This document shows positions 2,493 to 10,463 of a stretch of DNA of 11,097 nucleotides, piece by piece. This DNA comes from Bdellovibrionota bacterium (GTDB lineage Bacteria > Bdellovibrionota_C > UBA2361 > JBGSMV01): NCBI GenBank assembly GCA_044356455.1, contig JBIKWF010000131.1:1-11097 (forward strand). The letters run 5' to 3'. Positions within the stretch are counted from its first letter, which is position 1, and each line of letters opens with the position of its first letter. The notes below the pieces were generated by a model, which searched no databases, had not been told where the DNA came from, and saw only the letters and a program-made list of their open reading frames with translations. Both the position numbers and the translations under genes were made by a program.

Positions 2493-2514
2493 GAGAGAGT
2501 AGTGGCGTGCCGGC
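2493..2514. repeat. Left arm of a long-range inverted repeat enclosing the 2635-3198 gene (partner 3276-3297)
   Basis: GAGAGAGTAGTGGCGTGCCGGC versus the reverse complement of 3276-3297, GAGAGAGTAGTGGCGTGTCGGC: 21/22 identical. Confidence 0.9.
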
Positions 2515-2634
2515 GGCCCTTGTTGTTACAAGGACAAACCGGCAGCCATCGTGGACTTTTTTGCACTTCATCGAATGGGCCCAATCGATGACCTGCGAGT
2601 CCTTAGCTCAAGAAATGAGCTTCAGGGCTGCCGG

Positions 2635-3198
2635 TCAGGGTTTGGGCGAGGGCGGCACTTCCTTCCAGTCGAGCTTGATGCCATCCTTGTCGCACTCTTC
2701 TCCGACCTTGATGCTCATCCCGCCGCTCACCCAGTAGGACAACGTGACGGGGTACTTCACTTCGCCGACGAGCGGCTTGCCCGTCCACGTTCCCTTCGCC
2801 ACGCGCTCGCCGTCGCAGGTCTCGACGATGAGATCTCCCGACGGCAGCAGACGCATCGTTCCGGTGACGACCACCTGGGTCTTGCCGCTGTCGCTCATCC
2901 CGGGGGACTGCTTCTCGCAGTTGGCGGGAGGAGGAGGGGTCTGCGGAGTTGCGGGTTCCGGCTCCTTGTGTCCGTGGCACCCGGCACCTCCCTTGCAGCC
3001 CGGAGTGCCGCACTTCGTGCAGCCGACCTGAGAGGCGAGCTGACGCCCTTGCTCCTTCTTCGCCTCGAGTTCGTCACACTGCTCTTCCGTCATGTGGGAC
3101 TTGTGGTGGCGGTGACCTGCGCACCCGGCCGCTCCAAGGCAGAACGCAAGCGCTCCGACCGCAGCGGCCAACAAAAACCTCGTATTAGGACGTTTCAC
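2635..3198 (-). CDS. Hypothetical lipoprotein with His/Cys-rich N-terminal region, 187 aa
   Basis: GTG at 3198 has a GGAG RBS at 3207-3204. Basic N-region, hydrophobic stretch and LGAAG/C lipobox, then HRHHKSH, CTKCGTPGCKGGAGCHGH, a Pro-rich linker and a beta-rich C-terminal domain. Strong G/C-ending codon bias in this frame. Confidence 0.8.
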   Translation of the reverse strand: MKRPNTRFLLAAAVGALAFCLGAAGCAGHRHHKSHMTEEQCDELEAKKEQGRQLASQVGCTKCGTPGCKGGAGCHGHKEPEPATPQTPPPPANCEKQSPGMSDSGKTQVVVTGTMRLLPSGDLIVETCDGERVAKGTWTGKPLVGEVKYPVTLSYWVSGGMSIKVGEECDKDGIKLDWKEVPPSPKP

Positions 3199-3275
3199 GA
3201 TAACTCCAATCTGGGGCATTTAAGCCCCAACGATGTCACCGTGTCACAGCCGAAAACCCTCGCGTTAAGGGTCCA

Positions 3276-3297
3276 GCCGACACGCCACTACTCTCTC
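3276..3297. repeat. Right arm of the long-range inverted repeat enclosing the 2635-3198 gene (lies in its predicted 5' UTR)
   Basis: GCCGACACGCCACTACTCTCTC is complementary to 2493-2514. Confidence 0.9.
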
Positions 3298-3330
3298 AAT
3301 CTACCGTTTTACTGGGGCTGGATTCAGCCG

Positions 3331-3384
3331 TTTGGAATGAACTTTAACCTGATGGGGTTATACGCCAAATGGGTCACCAATCAA
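3331..3384 (-). promoter_or_regulatory. Sigma70-like promoter plus boxA-like motif for the 2635-3198 gene
   Basis: On the minus strand: TTGATT (3384-3379), 16-nt spacer, TATAAC (3362-3357), then GTTCATTCCAAA (3342-3331) 14 nt downstream. Confidence 0.55.
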
Positions 3385-3401
3385 GGTTTTAGAGACAAAG
3401 T

Positions 3402-3455
3402 TTGACTAGCTAGTTTCGAGGGACTAGGTTCCTCTGGAACAGCGTTCTTTCCCAC
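3402..3455 (+). promoter_or_regulatory. Sigma70-like promoter plus boxA-like motif for the 3640-4173 gene
   Basis: TTGACT (3402-3407), 17-nt spacer, TAGGTT (3425-3430), then GTTCTTTCCCAC (3444-3455) 13 nt downstream. Confidence 0.55.
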
Positions 3456-3469
3456 AATATCAATAATTT

Positions 3470-3499
3470 GCAGAAGAGCAGCAGAGAAGGTTTTCTTCT
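3470..3499. repeat. 5' arm of a long-range imperfect inverted repeat enclosing the 3640-4173 gene (partner 4358-4390)
   Basis: GCAGAAGAGC (3470-3479) pairs with GCTCTTCTGC (4381-4390). AGCAG (3480-3484) pairs with CTGCT (4375-4379). TTTCTTCT (3492-3499) pairs with AGAAGAGG (4358-4365) using G-U pairs. Confidence 0.7.
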
Positions 3500-3512
3500 G
3501 AGGTTTTTAGGT

Positions 3513-3580
3513 GTGCTGGGCTTTTTTAGCCGGCGACTAGTTCTCTATTTCTCTTGTCGTTAGCTAGAAAAGTCCAGCAC
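3513..3580 (+). other. 25-bp hairpin in the leader of the 3640 gene
   Basis: Arms 3513-3537 and 3556-3580 give 20 Watson-Crick pairs, 4 G-U pairs on the + strand and 1 mismatch, with an 18-nt pyrimidine-rich loop. Confidence 0.75.
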
Positions 3581-3639
3581 GCGTGCTGAAACAATCCTTC
3601 CCCTCCTGGACTTGGGGAATCAACAGAAAGGAGGTTGCT

Positions 3640-4173
3640 ATGCGCATGGCAATCTTCGGTAAGTTGGCGGGACTCGGCCGGAACAATCTGGCCCAAAGTC
3701 CCAAACCGGTGCTCGGCGTGGCCTTGTTGGCTATGCTGAGCGTGAACCTCGGTGGTTGCATTACGGATCCCAAAGATTCGGACGGCAACAAGGCCGAGGC
3801 GCACAAACTCCTCGGTGTCCGGCCTGGTGCGGGGGAACTCCCCGATATCACCAGGAACACCACCCTCTCGGGGCACTACGAGCGGATGATGCTCCCCGAT
3901 GGGTCGTACGGCATGGTGCTCTGCACCATGGACATGGTCTACCTCAGTCAGGCTCAGGTGGACAACCTGGATGCTGACACCATGTTGACTCCCTTCAAGG
4001 CCTTTGGCCTGGTTGGGGCTGGCGTCGAGGGCTTGGGTGAAGGCACCCACGCCTTCGGGATCTCGAGGAAGAAGTACGACGAGGCGGTGCGTCTGTCTGG
4101 GAATCTCACCCAGAACATCAACAAGACCACGCGCAAGATCGTCGTCCCCCCTACCGCGCCCGATCCCCAGTGA
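3640..4173 (+). CDS. Hypothetical lipoprotein, 177 aa
   Basis: Near-perfect RBS AAGGAGGT (3628-3635) before ATG 3640. Long N-region, hydrophobic stretch VLGVALLAMLSV and LGG/C lipobox. Strong G/C-ending codon bias. No family recognised. Confidence 0.82.
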   Translation: MRMAIFGKLAGLGRNNLAQSPKPVLGVALLAMLSVNLGGCITDPKDSDGNKAEAHKLLGVRPGAGELPDITRNTTLSGHYERMMLPDGSYGMVLCTMDMVYLSQAQVDNLDADTMLTPFKAFGLVGAGVEGLGEGTHAFGISRKKYDEAVRLSGNLTQNINKTTRKIVVPPTAPDPQ

Positions 4174-4357
4174 TCCGGCGTGAAGTCGGCGATTGCAAAG
4201 CTCGGCGGCTGGTCCGACAGGAGCAGCCGCTGATTATGGCGTTATGATTAGGTGGCCTAAAGCTAGGCAGTCCGTTCGCACGAACAGATCGCCAGCCTTG
4301 GAGTTTCTCCCGTAGAAGCAGAAATGTTCTCTGCGGGCAGACTCCTAGGGCGTTCTA

Positions 4358-4390
4358 AGAAGAGGTTCTCCCCCCTGCTCGCTCTTCTGC
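4358..4390. repeat. 3' arm of the long-range inverted repeat enclosing the 3640-4173 gene
   Basis: Complementary to 3470-3499 in three colinear blocks. It is followed at once by the GCGCCCT/AGGGCGC hairpin (4389-4417). Confidence 0.7.
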
Positions 4391-4546
4391 GCCCTTATCT
4401 TCTTCGAATAGGGCGCGAATACGTATTAATCCAGCTCATAAATTAAGCGCTTACTAAGCAGCCTCTGAAGAGGCGCCATTCTTCGCAACATGTTTATCTT
4501 CCTGCGAGTTCCTAGCGAACCCTGGATGCCGCGAAGCATTTGATTC

Positions 4547-4617
4547 GGCACCGCGAGGACGCGGAGCCCTATCTAGTGCAGCAGAGTTTCGGTAGGGCGC
4601 CGCGTCCCCGCGGTGCC
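4547..4617. repeat. Back-to-back REP doublet (4547-4572 minus, degenerate; 4592-4617 plus)
   Basis: Plus copy GTAG-GGCGCCGCG-TCCC-CGCGGTGCC. Minus copy ATAG-GGCTCCGCG-TCCT-CGCGGTGCC. 19-nt linker. Located between convergent genes. Confidence 0.8.
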
Positions 4618-4696
4618 GCAAGATCTTTCTACCCAGCACATGGTAAGGTTTCATCCCGCTCGTCGATGGCGCGCTTGCTCAGCGGAGCAAGGCCAC

Positions 4697-6409
4697 TTAT
4701 CTCATGCCAAGTGGTCCAACTGGCGCTGCCTTAGAGGAGGAATCTTCTCCCTCTGCAACTTTCTCTTGCGTGTCAGGAGCGAAGAGATCGCTGGCCCACG
4801 AAGGCATCTCTATTGCGAGGCTGGAAGCTTTTGTCGGAGGAGGTGCCCAGCTCTCAAAGAGTGCAAAGGGGAATCTCTCTGCAGAGAACTGAGGTAAGGC
4901 AAATAGGCCTGTTGTCTGCATGCGGGGAAGGGCAACGAAATTAGCTTGAGCCTCAGCGGACGCGCCCTCTGATACCGGCGCCCAGAAGATGTTGGTGGGG
5001 GCTGAGTGTGGGAATAAATCTGTGGCCCAGTCAGGCAATCTTACTGCTAAGGAAGATGGGGTTGTTAGCGTAGGAAGTGCAGCCTCATTTTCTTTTGAAG
5101 CGGACGGATTTTCCTCTGTATCAGCACTTGAGTCACGTGTGGACTCGGAGGCGTCTTCTTTTTTATCTGTAACTACTGCGCTCGCCGCCACGGGCTCGTG
5201 AGGTTTGGTTTCAGTAGTAAACAGGTCCGACATTTCGCCAGGCAGCTCAACTCCAAGTGAAAGAGCTTTGCTTGCTGCATGAGGACGAGAAGGAGCTGAA
5301 GCAGAAGAAGACGGAGCAGCGGGAGCATCTGCCGATGCGGCTTCTGGGGCTGGACCCTGAGAAGGTGCGGGTTCAGTTCGCATGTTCTTGGGCGCCGCGA
5401 GTTCCTCGCTCCAAGGGTCATTCCGCAAATCGCTTTGAGGACCAGTCTTTTCTGAGTCAGGCTGAGCAGTGGGCGGTGTTGGCCCAGACGCTGGATCGTC
5501 CATGCGTAAAGGCTCTGGCGGCTTGTTAGTGCTCTGCTCTTCCTTAGTAGGGGCAGTAGCAACACTAACCGGCGGCATGATGAGAGGCCCAGAGTCTACT
5601 TGATCAGTCGGCTCGGCCGGGACAGTTACAATCGGAGCGGGGTTAACCAAAACTGGCTTAGGGGCTTCAGGCGCAGGGGCTGGATCTGTCTGCGAGGTCG
5701 TAGCCCCTGATTCTTTATTTTCCATCAAAGATGGAGCTTCTGGTGAAACAGTCAAGTCTTGAGCAGGGGGAGCATTCTTCAGCGACTCTCCCGGAGGATT
5801 CTCGAGTCCAGCAGAGGTTTTTGCTACTTCTCCTCCGGCGAGTCTTTTTTCAGGCGGGCGATTGTCAATTTGGCTCAGCATGAACGCTCCGCCGCCTGCA
5901 ATAATCAGAGCGGCTGCCGCGATAAGTTTTCCTCTCGTGCTTGTGTCGAGCGAAACGGGAGTTGCGGTGTGCGTGGGAAAACTTAGAGTTTCTGCCGCTT
6001 CTACGATTCTAATGTTTTGAATCTCTGGCAGCGCAAAGGGCAAGGCCCCTGCGAAGCTTGTGACCTTACGAAGGACGTTCGTACTTGAGAGCGAGAACAC
6101 GCGCGATGTCGCGAGGTCCACAAGAACGCTTCCATGCTCGGGGTGCGAGAAGGTGAGTGTCCTCTCGGCGGAGAGCCCTAACTCACGACTTTGATCTGCG
6201 GCGACGCCCTCAAATTTTGCTGGTACGTCGCTCTTCGTGAAGAGTGTCGTCTCGCCCGTTTCGCTCATCTGTGCGAGTGCGCCGGGAAGTGCGTACCAAC
6301 GGTCAGGCGCCTGAGTAGAATTTCTGTGAGTAAAGTTTCGTGGACGCGGGAGCGCTGCGTTCGACGAGAGTCGACGGTGTGAAGGTGGATGTGCAAGTGC
6401 GCTAACCAA
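4697..6409 (-). CDS. Hypothetical single-pass membrane protein with long Pro/Ala/Ser/Glu/Thr-rich, probably disordered C-terminal region
   Basis: 570-codon ORF with one hydrophobic helix (LIAAAALIIAGGGAFMLS) and three copies of an SLxVxLPxxxxDLF motif near the C-terminus. The TTG start at 6409 has no clear RBS, so the true start may be internal. Confidence 0.75.
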   Translation of the reverse strand: MVSALAHPPSHRRLSSNAALPRPRNFTHRNSTQAPDRWYALPGALAQMSETGETTLFTKSDVPAKFEGVAADQSRELGLSAERTLTFSHPEHGSVLVDLATSRVFSLSSTNVLRKVTSFAGALPFALPEIQNIRIVEAAETLSFPTHTATPVSLDTSTRGKLIAAAALIIAGGGAFMLSQIDNRPPEKRLAGGEVAKTSAGLENPPGESLKNAPPAQDLTVSPEAPSLMENKESGATTSQTDPAPAPEAPKPVLVNPAPIVTVPAEPTDQVDSGPLIMPPVSVATAPTKEEQSTNKPPEPLRMDDPASGPTPPTAQPDSEKTGPQSDLRNDPWSEELAAPKNMRTEPAPSQGPAPEAASADAPAAPSSSASAPSRPHAASKALSLGVELPGEMSDLFTTETKPHEPVAASAVVTDKKEDASESTRDSSADTEENPSASKENEAALPTLTTPSSLAVRLPDWATDLFPHSAPTNIFWAPVSEGASAEAQANFVALPRMQTTGLFALPQFSAERFPFALFESWAPPPTKASSLAIEMPSWASDLFAPDTQEKVAEGEDSSSKAAPVGPLGMR

Positions 6410-6603: not shown

Positions 6604-7830
6604 ATGCAACTCTCTTCTGCGCTTCGAAGAACCGCTTGGGTGGCAGCTGCCGCTGGTGCTTCTCTCATGGGGTTAGGCGGATGTGCTTCAAATAAGGCGA
6701 CAAACGGCACTCAGGCTGACGGGCAAACGGATGCTGCTTTGGTATCCGGCTCTCCTGGAGAAGCTGGGGCCGCTGCTGAAAATAGCGAATCCCCCAAGGT
6801 TGCCTCCGGCTCCAAGACTCCAAGCGGCGCAGAACAAGCGAGTGCCCTAGACCCCACAATTCTTGGCGACGATATTCTCAAGAGAGTTAATCCCGAGAAT
6901 ATCAGCGTGAACGTGGTGCAGCACGTTCCAAGCGCTGAGGAAGCCCAGAGAAGTTTCACCTTGTCGAAGGCCCAGATCACAAAAGCCGCTGAGGAATATG
7001 CGGCACTTGGTCAGTATCTGAAGGAGCACGCACCAAGGGCGCCAGAGAACCAGCGTATATCTATTGCAGCGATGTCGGATTTCTCCTTTGCCGTAAGCCA
7101 CAGAATTAGCCTGCTTGGGACCTCTGCGGGTGAGATTCAAATAGCGCTCGACCTTGCGAGCTCAGCTTCTAATGAAATGGACGATTGGGCACTGCGCACC
7201 AAGGAGCCTCAAGCGAGGAGTCGGCTTGCAAGAAGCGGAGCGGAGACCATTGCGCAGATTGCCTCTGCGTCAGGTGCTCCAGTCTCAGAGATTGAGGCTG
7301 AACTCAAGTCCGCGTGGACTAAAACGGCCCTCTTGATAATCGCAACTCGGGAGTATGGGGCGCCGATGTGGGGTGATGCCGTGACGGAGTCCCGCCGTAA
7401 GGCCGCTGCTCAAATCGCTACGGTGATAGAACACGACCAGTCGATAGCAAAATTAGGACAGCCACTTGACCCTGCCGTAGTGAACGCGAACTTGCGAGTG
7501 GCTGCTACGGCAGAGAAATTGATGCAGGTAGTTCTTGTTGCGGGAGACTCTGACGTAGTTAAGAAGCTGCGCCTTCTTTCGCCTCAAGGTGGCTCAGAAA
7601 TAGTCGGCGCGAGTGTTTTAGACACTGACGCATTTGCGAGATTCTCTGCCTTCGCAAAGTTAAATCCCTTGGATGAGAGCAGTATGCTTCGCTGGGCTCT
7701 GCTGCGTAATGTTCCTAAAGTCTCAGAGCGCTTCTTTTCTGGTTCTCAAGTGCCGCCTGCAGCCACCGCATCGCCGGAAGTTGCTTCCGGATTGCAGTCT
7801 CTTCTTAAGGACGAAGGGCTGGCTGAGTAG
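6604..7830 (+). CDS. Hypothetical lipoprotein, predicted mostly alpha-helical, 408 aa
   Basis: ATG with AGGA RBS. Signal LRRTAWVAAAAGASLMGLGG/C, then a low-complexity tether and an Ala/Leu/Glu-rich body. No family recognised. Confidence 0.82.
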   Translation: MQLSSALRRTAWVAAAAGASLMGLGGCASNKATNGTQADGQTDAALVSGSPGEAGAAAENSESPKVASGSKTPSGAEQASALDPTILGDDILKRVNPENISVNVVQHVPSAEEAQRSFTLSKAQITKAAEEYAALGQYLKEHAPRAPENQRISIAAMSDFSFAVSHRISLLGTSAGEIQIALDLASSASNEMDDWALRTKEPQARSRLARSGAETIAQIASASGAPVSEIEAELKSAWTKTALLIIATREYGAPMWGDAVTESRRKAAAQIATVIEHDQSIAKLGQPLDPAVVNANLRVAATAEKLMQVVLVAGDSDVVKKLRLLSPQGGSEIVGASVLDTDAFARFSAFAKLNPLDESSMLRWALLRNVPKVSERFFSGSQVPPAATASPEVASGLQSLLKDEGLAE

Positions 7831-9393: not shown

Positions 9394-9496
9394 ACGATGT
9401 TCGCTGCTCGTGCCTGGAGAGAGGGATAGCGAGCGATTGCTTAATGTTCAATGTTTCAGGGGGGTTATGTGGTTGTGCCGGGGCGACAGTTATTTC

Positions 9497-9601
9497 GGCA
9501 CCGCGGGGCTTGTCGCGCCGTCGCCTACTGGCAGAGGCGGAACGCGGCGCCCTACCAAGGACTCTGCGCCATTGGGTAGGGCGCCCTGTCCCCAGGGCGC
9601 C
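9497..9601. repeat. Back-to-back REP doublet; the minus copy (9497-9555) carries an insertion in its loop, the plus copy is 9576-9601
   Basis: Plus copy GTAG-GGCGCCCTG-TCCC-CAGGGCGCC. Minus copy arms 9543-9551 and 9497-9505 are separated by 37 nt instead of 3-4 nt. Confidence 0.8.
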
Positions 9602-9697
9602 GAAATATTTGCCGCGCCGACTCTCGTGTTGAAATGGCGGCGCGCAAACTGAGGCGCAAGAGTGGCAGCTCTTTTTCAGCTCTGTATACTCTTCGCC

Positions 9698-10276
9698 ATG
9701 ACTGCTCCTTCACTGCTGATTCTTGCTGGGCCGAATGGCTGTGGAAAGACGACCATTGCCGAGTTTATGGCCCAGGCGGGAAATCTAGGACGATTCCTAA
9801 ATGCCGATCTCATCGCTCGGGGTCTCGAGTCGAAACCTTTGATTGGTGGTCAGATTGAGTCGGGAAGGATTCTCTTGCAGCAATTGCACGCGGCTATCGA
9901 TTCTCGTGCGAGCATAGCCTTTGAGTCTACGCTTTCAGGGCGGACTTGGATGCGGTTAATAGGCGAGGCGCGTAAGAGCGGATTTGAGATTACAATCTGT
10001 TATGTTGCAGTTAGAACGGCAGATATCGCCGTTGCGCGGGTTGCAAGCAGAATTGCTGAAGGTGGTCATTCGGTTCCAGAGCAGGATATTCGCAGGCGGT
10101 ATGCACGCTCTCTTGAGTTGTTTTGGAATGTCTATCAGCCGCAGGTCGACAATTGGTATTTCTTCGATAATTCTGGGACGTCCGCGCTACTTGTTGCTTA
10201 CAAGGAGGGCCCGGCCCCTCACCAAGTGAAGGATTCGGAGTTGTTTGGCTTTTACCGAGGTCGCTATGGAAACTAA
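9698..10276 (+). CDS. Zeta-toxin-like / predicted ABC-type P-loop ATPase (AAA family), 192 aa
   Basis: Walker A ILAGPNGCGKTT, FLNADLIA, IAFESTLSG, ARVASRIAEGGHSVPEQDIRRRY and FDNS are typical of short zeta-toxin-family kinases. ATG 9698 places the P-loop at the usual N-terminal position. Confidence 0.9.
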   Translation: MTAPSLLILAGPNGCGKTTIAEFMAQAGNLGRFLNADLIARGLESKPLIGGQIESGRILLQQLHAAIDSRASIAFESTLSGRTWMRLIGEARKSGFEITICYVAVRTADIAVARVASRIAEGGHSVPEQDIRRRYARSLELFWNVYQPQVDNWYFFDNSGTSALLVAYKEGPAPHQVKDSELFGFYRGRYGN

Positions 10277-10463
10277 AGTAAAGCACCCCGCCGTGCAGGC
10301 ATTCATAGATTTACTCCCTGAGATGCCAAGGTTGCTCGAAGAGCGTCGTCGCCGAATCCGAGAGAAGCGAGAATTCCAAAGAAGAGTGTTCGAGAAAGCA
10401 TTGACCGAGGCGCGGCTCATTGGGCCGAATGCGAGGCGGAAAGTGTGGGGGGCGGACTCCTAG
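10266..10463 (+). CDS. Small basic protein overlapping the ATPase gene; candidate antitoxin or partner, 65 aa
   Basis: GAGGT RBS (10257-10261), ATG 10266, 11-nt overlap with the upstream gene, Arg/Glu-rich helix. Confidence 0.6.
   Translation: METKVKHPAVQAFIDLLPEMPRLLEERRRRIREKREFQRRVFEKALTEARLIGPNARRKVWGADS

Follow-up and report, generated by a model that had tools for sequence, protein, structure and literature searches.

In this study we analysed a DNA stretch of 11,097 nucleotides (the window), which is contig C152 of a Bdellovibrionota genome (G000; 4.70 Mb, 52.5% GC). It contains a divergent pair of orphan lipoprotein genes, gene 1 on the minus strand and gene 2 on the plus strand, and each is wrapped in a frame similar to that of a pre-rRNA. 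The frame consists of a promoter, a boxA-like word, a 5′ arm, structured untranslated regions (UTRs) and a 3′ arm, with a GGUU tag inside each arm. The frame is real and, as an architecture, new in kind. Genes 1 and 2 belong to a dedicated class of monocistronic messages, and about 15 convincing framed genes are scattered singly among ordinary genes of G000. As a tentative interpretation, which we hold at somewhat under an even chance, these units may be antiterminated, end-clamped and long-lived mRNAs that a GC-rich cell, a partner or prey, is meant to translate.

The original prediction had described the same ordered layout for both units. The arms (Table 1), the GGGG/CCCC hairpins, the lipoboxes and the GC content at third codon positions (GC3) of 0.79 are confirmed. 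The arms of gene 1 are 22 nt long, 95% complementary and paired in both the minimum-free-energy and the centroid folds, and those of gene 2 form a bulged helix. Folding of the whole units against shuffled controls, a check proposed together with the prediction, yields z values of −5.9 (gene 1) and −7.9 (gene 2), and none of the 20 shuffles of either unit equals the native fold. The UTRs alone reach −10.2 and −8.2. No comparable frame is found at four other genes of the window, as had been claimed: the flanks of three give −0.3, −0.3 and −2.2, and the leader of the HiPIP gene gives −3.2. Among 3641 genes of G000, ranked by a strict stem scan with repeats masked, the enclosing stem of gene 1 takes rank 1 and that of gene 2 rank 104. 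An earlier, permissive stem scan was uninformative and was set aside, and sense-versus-antisense stem energies, which are biased by the choice of arms, were not used. Two elements of the predicted layout fare differently from the arms and the boxA-like words. A strict scan of the window finds 0 promoter sites, so both promoters, which lie 7–8 nt ahead of the boxA-like words, rest on reading by eye and on conservation. The TGA stop does not define the layout, because other members and the gene 2 homologue on metagenome contig L187 end with TAA or TAG.

Both genes encode predicted lipoproteins with a signal peptide and a lipobox cysteine. The lipobox is AAGC at residues 23–26 of the gene 1 product and LGGC at residues 37–40 of the gene 2 product, each following a single hydrophobic segment, and the cysteine is kept in homologues. 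No Pfam or NCBIfam family and no usable ESM Atlas match is found for either protein, and AlphaFold with a five-row alignment gives a confidence (pLDDT) of 48. An Rfam search of the window and nine loci returns only chance matches to miRNA hairpins and no ribozyme, rRNA or tRNA.

The divergent pair recurs on the metagenome contigs L187 and L188 and in the same-genus genome G001, and one of the order's 90 other genomes has a match to gene 1. The proteins are 51–66% identical to those of L187 and L188 over the aligned part, with ratios of nonsynonymous to synonymous substitution rates (dN/dS) of 0.30–0.47 (0.30 for gene 1 and 0.32 for gene 2 against L187). As judged from these ratios, both coding sequences (CDSs) are shown to be under purifying selection. 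The GTG start of gene 1 is kept in 4/4 homologues. Covariation in relatives had been proposed as a further check, and the stem of gene 1 provides it: 21 of the 22 pairs are kept in all three complete homologues, two via two-sided changes and three via wobble, and the native arm pairs better than swapped arms in each of the three. Its inner 3′ tag reads GCCGGTTT in all of them, and the boxA-like words of gene 1 homologues are GTTCTTTCCAT and GTTCTTTAAAT. The second stem behaves differently. The arms of gene 2 are nearly invariant although the intervening 3′ UTR differs by more than 100 nt. For gene 2 and for the members on C56 and C90, swapping the arms leaves the pairing just as good, which is conservation and not covariation. 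The gene 2 word in G001 is GATCTTTCAGA. To be noted, leader and N-terminus of gene 1 are identical between L187 and L188 while the C-terminal halves and the 3′ UTR interiors differ, a pattern that looks like domain exchange between alleles. Another protein, P0003, joins a window-type N-terminus to an L188-type C-terminus. Several homologous proteins come from contigs of 578–766 nt, about the size of one unit, and most contigs in that set are short.

The same layout in three independent assemblies refutes chance pairing or misassembly, to which we give almost no credence. One may object that the stem of gene 2 on its own does not stand out in the ranking and that GTTCWTTCCMA, with 11 copies in G000, occurs nine times outside the window. 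The folds, the stem ranking, the covariation, and the tag counts and frame scans given below all speak against such an origin. Relics of mobile cassettes or of integrated RNA replicons, that is, recent GC-rich inserts that have inverted ends, a short direct repeat and no RNA role, are very unlikely too. The scattered single genes, their foreign codons and the abundance of inverted-repeat elements in the genome would fit such relics. They are largely refuted by the covariation: a second species retains the locus together with its frame, and the changes there are compensatory. Furthermore, the arms share no sequence between loci and are unique in G000, the neighbours are ordinary with no adjacent integrase-like gene (by eye), viral contigs and phages give no match, and the PilT members of the class derive from one old acquisition. 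No reverse transcriptase is found in G000, whose completeness of 93% bears on this absence and on that of Mini-III given below. An insertion sequence, a miniature inverted-repeat element or an integron cassette was rejected as a candidate, with no shared terminal repeats and no nearby recombinase seen.

The original prediction overlooked the genome-wide and order-wide class, the GGUU motif and the pointers to Planctomycetota. A count across G000 shows that the combination of stem, boxA word and 5′ tag is rare elsewhere: it is present in 9 of 42 high-GC3 open reading frames (ORFs) and in 5 of 3758 others. The corresponding p value of 2e-15 is optimistic, as the frame rule was drawn up on some of the same genes. 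A frame scan independent of ORFs gives 13/2160, compared with 1/1796, 7/3270 and 2/1569 in three controls. The pattern of promoter plus boxA alone has 435 sites in G000 and is not enriched over the reversed control in five relatives. GGTT stands just within the 5′ arm in 11 of 16 high-GC3 stems versus 39 of 363 control stems, and just within the 3′ arm in 9/16 versus 42/363. We preferred this positional count inside stems because the raw AGGTT tally (17/18 leaders) is inflated by overlaps with Shine–Dalgarno (SD) sequences and by copies outside the stem. Among 16 scored members, four lipoproteins, one PEP-CTERM-like protein and four membrane proteins are counted. Besides the lipoproteins and the PEP-CTERM-like protein, the convincing members of G000 encode a pilin-like and three multi-pass membrane proteins, PilT, a protein similar to DUF1444 and a number of orphans that are soluble. 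Two members, on C26, are in tandem.

Framed orthologues are found in three families of the order, and frames are also present in sequences outside the definition set (C84, G001 C52, G002, G031, L107, G034, G090 and G023). A codon model trained on five members picked up C84 unaided, and C52, found in the 793 kb of G001 scanned, is a new member with both tags. PilT orthologues are framed in G002, G031 and L107. Framed DUF1444-like orthologues in G034, G090 and G023, which represent a third family, have different arm sequences in the same layout; the boxA word is seen in G034 and lies beyond the stretch inspected for G090 and G023. The G001 copy of the DUF1444-like gene is broken, has a GC3 of 0.56 and lacks the stem. 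Searches of kin for full-length orthologues gave 0/5 for C150, 0/90 for C84 and 0/90 for C48, and a DNA search of 40 relatives found repeats only.

Genes 1 and 2 are both present as RNA. Seven metatranscriptome runs from four studies contain part of the region, and in the four runs examined all 12 contig pieces fall within the two framed units. These pieces prove presence only, because they are of low depth and the runs were chosen using this region; for the same reason the uncovered stretches 1500–2555, 3264–3579 and 4393–5500 carry no weight. One piece stops at 4392, the foot of the gene 2 stem, and spans the 3′ tag and the whole 3′ arm linearly. Another reaches 3263 and is linear 3 nt beyond the 5′ tag of gene 1. 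Circularisation of the messages had been suggested originally. In a specific form, the stem with its twin GGUU tags would be a two-fold symmetric cut-and-join site giving a circular mRNA ligated by RtcB, which would be compatible with either delivery to another cell or storage. The tag enrichment in both arms and the presence of genes for RtcB and RNase III are in line with this. We consider it unlikely: the 12 low-depth pieces of the four runs contain no back-joined ends, the two pieces above run linearly across the inner tags, and the 3′ tag is altered in gene 2 homologues.

The frame resembles pre-rRNA (the accessible part of PMC10250234) in the order of promoter, boxA, 5′ strand, enclosed RNA and 3′ strand and in the long helix joining both ends. 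It differs in that the enclosed RNA is a protein-coding message, the arms are gene-specific and GGUU tags are found inside. The published boxA consensus is GYTCTTTAANA (PMC5725501, as far as accessible). The core G[ACT]TC[AT]TT is present in genes 1 and 2 and their homologues, and the window copies diverge from the consensus past this core, while the words of C48 and C79 match it almost fully. The suggestion that the word is the organism's own rRNA operon (rrn) boxA does not hold, and in this the units again differ from pre-rRNA: no conserved GYTCTTT core exists in 20 rrn leaders of the order. The boxA core occurs in 5 of these 20 16S leaders (20 usable of 24 loci, L201–L220), scattered and at about chance, and in 7 of 48 tRNA leaders against a chance of 13%. 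Only an ACAAT-like remnant stands before the 16S stems of the order. Their invariant core, ATGGGTAG, is present in 20/20 rrn stems. That core (ATGGGTAGAAG with its partner) is absent in both window stems, and an arm of C138 partially carries it as GGGTAGAAG. Planctomycetota differ from this: canonical boxA is found in 3 of 5 planctomycete leaders, and in two genomes of a Phycisphaerales-type order it lies 14 nt ahead of the 16S stem. G000 encodes NusB, RNase III and RtcB and, by motif, Rho and SuhB. Mini-III, whose substrate recognition we take to be linked to an AGGU motif, has no gene in G000, and the single RNase III-domain gene encodes the full-length enzyme. In the region C38:71851–76899, rtcB follows an SPFH-like gene and tRNA-Asn and is transcribed divergently from an RtcR-like gene (by eye).

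boxA shields untranslated RNA from Rho, CRISPR arrays included. The most likely role of the boxA-like word here is that of a Nus site, which the lineage keeps more strictly on framed genes than on its rRNA. The claim of an rRNA-like frame survives in a modified form: it is conserved, rare around ordinary genes and transcribed, in a genome that encodes NusB, RNase III, Rho and SuhB. Protein-coding genes with a boxA in their 5′ part are also known from boxA-regulated mRNAs such as Escherichia coli suhB, where it adjoins the SD, represses translation and promotes Rho termination (accessible part of PMC5725501). Unlike there, boxA in the framed class lies about 140–330 nt upstream, ahead of the enclosing stem and on unrelated genes. 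The word lies 134–144 nt upstream of the start in gene 1 and 186–196 nt upstream in gene 2, and neither lies within about 50 nt of the start or overlaps the ribosome site. The framed units work like a pre-rRNA unit, yet they stand outside the pre-rRNA family and outside suhB-type repression. Archaeal bulge–helix–bulge processing yields circular pre-rRNA, and obelisks and other viroid-like coding circles exist. These share with the framed units a highly folded RNA of about 1 kb with a single ORF, paired ends and a roughly symmetric motif. The framed genes differ in being chromosomal (in four assemblies), promoter-driven and vertically inherited, with no ribozyme or Rfam family.

Most members have a GC3 of about 0.7–0.8, while the host baseline is 0.52 (standard deviation 0.048, 3933 ORFs of G000). 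The GC content at four-fold degenerate sites is 0.65–0.82 in members and 0.40–0.55 in host genes of high expression (EF-Tu, EF-G, GroEL, DnaK, RpoB/C and AtpD). In gene 1 and 2 homologues, 55–60% of synonymous sites differ and GC3 holds at 0.71–0.79. The UTRs of framed units have 52–54% GC, so the high GC3 is not a regional bias. With C138 excluded from the comparison, a Phycisphaerales codon model outperforms the host model for only 13 of 3216 host ORFs; genes 1 (+0.078) and 2 (+0.118) favour the former, and the host mean is −0.333. Member codons score −1.07 per codon on the two Phycisphaerales-order genomes versus −1.18 on kin, and at Thr, Val, Arg and Ser the choice between C and G resembles that of the partner. 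In a quick tree of 111 rows with sampling restricted to best matches, the framed PilTs, which come from five genomes, group in a single clade (SH-aLRT support 98) that adjoins Planctomycetota PilT and is separate from the PilT native to the order. They have a GC3 of 0.61–0.81 amid flanks of about 0.5 GC. The closest relatives of the DUF1444-like member, at 60–61% identity, are found in 2 of 81 Planctomycetota genomes, which have 68% GC and share their order with a named Phycisphaeraceae record. There the gene adjoins the next ORF directly, without boxA word or frame. The tail of the C48 product matches 3 of 21 genomes of that order, weakly.

How could such units work? From established Nus biology, the boxA word would recruit NusB/NusE and let RNA polymerase complete the RNA without trailing ribosomes. 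By analogy with Nus and RNase III processing, the enclosing stem would then shut both ends to exonucleases and give a long-lived linear mRNA. A terminator scan calls no intrinsic terminator after either 3′ arm, so the 3′ end probably arises from trimming to the stem. In the least certain step, the messages may be cargo, with a packaging or export protein that reads the GGUU-tagged stem. The mRNA would be translated inside a GC-rich partner or prey of Phycisphaerales type. With its own Sec, lipoprotein, sorting and pilus machines, the recipient could bring lipoproteins, membrane proteins and a partner-type PilT to sites that an injected protein would hardly reach. We favour cargo because it explains boxA, stability, the RNA tag, partner-type codons, the lone PilT and the envelope proteins together; it can be argued that envelope proteins must be made inside the cell displaying them. 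The wider version, in which lineage-wide, GGUU-tagged mRNA effectors are codon-tuned to a planctomycete and delivered across phyla to remodel the recipient's envelope and pili, is possible but distinctly doubtful. Protein effectors injected by secretion systems are likewise scattered, fast-evolving, partner-like orphan genes, and the swapped C-terminal halves of gene 1 between L187 and L188 recall them. The framed class differs from them in carrying its shared signal in the RNA and in that many products are lipoproteins or membrane proteins.

Several observations weigh against delivery. Gene 1 is unmatched in 61 genomes of the Phycisphaerales-type planctomycete order. Other GC-rich genomes fit the member codons about equally, so the fit is not specific to Phycisphaerales. 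High-GC3 genes without a frame exist (C76, C44), and a protease-like gene of G034 (L194) with a planctomycete-style sorting tail has a GC3 of only 0.38. VirB4 was not found in G000, other delivery machines not having been searched for, and a predatory life in this lineage would be an assumption. Further points against delivery also favour another explanation, which we regard as a serious possibility short of probable: the framed messages may be mRNAs that the producer stores or makes unusually stable for itself, with an rRNA-type frame for survival through a non-growing phase and quick later translation. The genes would be borrowed from planctomycetes or new, for example surface mimics or adhesins, and compact folding would protect the RNA and thereby keep GC3 high. 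All eight CDSs examined fold better than synonymous shuffles, two of them strongly (gene 2, z −6.3; C48, z −3.7), and high GC3 may serve folding. The SDs are strong and open; comparison with 150 control genes shows no added occlusion of SD and start (p 0.37–0.99), and occluded ribosome sites were rejected as a candidate feature. The producer has its own exosortase and LspA and could sort these proteins itself. Some frames enclose genes with host-style codons (C156; the G002 PilT with GC3 0.61), and the choice between C and G is host-like at Gly, Pro and Leu. Attack-phase cells of Bdellovibrio contain very abundant structured RNAs (accessible part of PMC3627812). One of these, merRNA, is likewise abundant and structured, occurs in a predator that may be related and has been proposed as a store; it differs in being a non-coding riboswitch RNA, and no boxA–stem frame around a CDS is described in that part of the source. 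Storage leaves unexplained the isolated partner-type PilT clade beside the host's own PilT, the partner-like codon choice for Ser, Thr, Val and Arg, and the need of a translated mRNA for boxA. In addition, the CDS of gene 1 has no extra structure (z −0.8) and yet a GC3 of 0.79.

We met no such mRNA class in the literature searched; most subscription papers were beyond reach, and the gene list of PMC5725501, of which a part was accessible, could hold related cases. By the accepted rule, a bacterial mRNA has a short life and is translated at the site and time of its synthesis. The framed class, which is selected, lineage-wide and built like stable RNA, breaks this rule whether it is delivered or stored. 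If the messages are cargo, they would represent natural programmed mRNA delivery between bacterial cells, a strategy of predation or symbiosis that injects RNA in place of protein. The tag could then lead to the export machine, and an uncultured organism's partner would be predictable from codon usage. As stored messages they would still show a natural way of designing bacterial mRNA for a long life. Being simple, the frame can be scanned for in any genome.

Table 1. Features of the two framed units in the window and positions of further members in G000.
Feature	Position	Strand	Basis
Gene 1 promoter, putative sigma-70 type (TTGATT, 16 nt, TATAAC)	3357..3384	−	By eye; kept in L187/L188
Gene 1 boxA-like word GTTCWTTCCMA	3332..3342	−	About 8 nt past putative start; motif match
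Gene 1 5′ arm of enclosing stem	3276..3297	−	Complementarity, fold, genome ranking, homologue pairing
Gene 1 small hairpin, inner 5′ GGUU tag (3253–3260) on its 3′ side	3253..3275	−	Fold, homologues
Gene 1 leader helix, GGGG/CCCC hairpin (3212–3229), SD (3204–3207)	3204..3246	−	Fold
Gene 1 CDS, 187-aa Cys-rich orphan lipoprotein (predicted), GTG start, GC3 0.79	2635..3198	−	ORF, homologues
Gene 1 3′ multibranch fold and hairpin, inner 3′ GGUU tag (2536–2543)	2515..2634	−	Fold, homologues
Gene 1 3′ arm of enclosing stem	2493..2514	−	Complementarity, fold
Gene 2 promoter, putative (TTGACT, 17 nt, TAGGTT)	3402..3430	+	By eye; TTGACTA invariant in 4/4 homologues
Gene 2 boxA-like word GTTCWTTCCMA	3444..3454	+	Motif match
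Gene 2 5′ arm (core 3470–3484), inner 5′ GGUU tag (3487–3494)	3470..3499	+	Fold, ranking, homologues
Gene 2 long leader hairpin, GGGG/CCCC hairpin (3598–3619), SD AGAAAGGAGG (3625–3634)	3500..3639	+	Fold, homologues
Gene 2 CDS, 177-aa orphan lipoprotein (predicted), GC3 0.79	3640..4173	+	ORF, homologues
Gene 2 3′ multibranch fold and repeat-like hairpin (about 4299–4352)	4174..4357	+	Fold
Gene 2 3′ arm, inner 3′ GGUU tag (4362–4369)	4358..4390	+	Fold, homologues
Further member	C150:22993–24090	+	
Further member	C56:3880–5094	−	
Further member	C48:7686–8782	−	
Further member	C84:47611–48842	+	
Further member	C79:46876–47706	+	
Further member	C120:34747–36132	+	
Further member	C35:10203–10725	+	
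Further member	C60:16714–17939	+	
Further member	C26:14431–15503	−	
Further member	C26:13280–14349	−	
Further member	C202:14991–15768	+	
Further member	C154:105110–105716	−	
Further member	C90:440–1284	−	
Further member	C138:22466–23147	+	
Further member	C156:4386–5337	+	

Genome-wide palindromic repeats are present in the window at 1–55, 659–741, 2260–2461, 4542–4633 and 9474–9619, two of which flank the framed pair, and the last hairpin of gene 2 looks by eye like a degenerate copy of a genome-wide repeat. The other genes include HiPIP (71–439), a PIN-domain gene with a likely antitoxin (795–1445), an ion-channel gene (1784–2185) and a zeta-toxin-like AAA gene with a small partner (9698–10463), which have host-style codons and no frame. 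A 408-aa orphan lipoprotein at 6604–7830, with GC3 of 0.52 and unstructured flanks, serves as an internal control.

Elsewhere in G000, C122:10908–11318 and C202:12113–12590 (both plus strand) have boxA word, stem and 5′ tag without a clear GC-rich ORF and are possibly non-coding or decayed members. A structured RNA after ahcY (C24:19500–20440, plus strand) contains a boxA-like word with AGGTT after it, and AGGTT appears again close to the end of the RNA, which fails the frame scan. In G001, a GC3-rich peptidase-like gene (C39:129813–131330, minus strand; by eye) has boxA word and stem, and a GC3-rich SPFH-like gene (C36:32795–33814, minus strand; by eye) has no clear frame. Two frame-free GC3-rich clusters of G000, one of phosphatase-, kinase-, nicotinamidase- and vWA-like genes (C76:2111–7320, plus strand; by eye) and one with an M48 peptidase pair (C44:14847–17329, minus strand), are probably ordinary transfers. 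Thirteen flagellin-like ORFs were recognised by motif on several contigs of G000.

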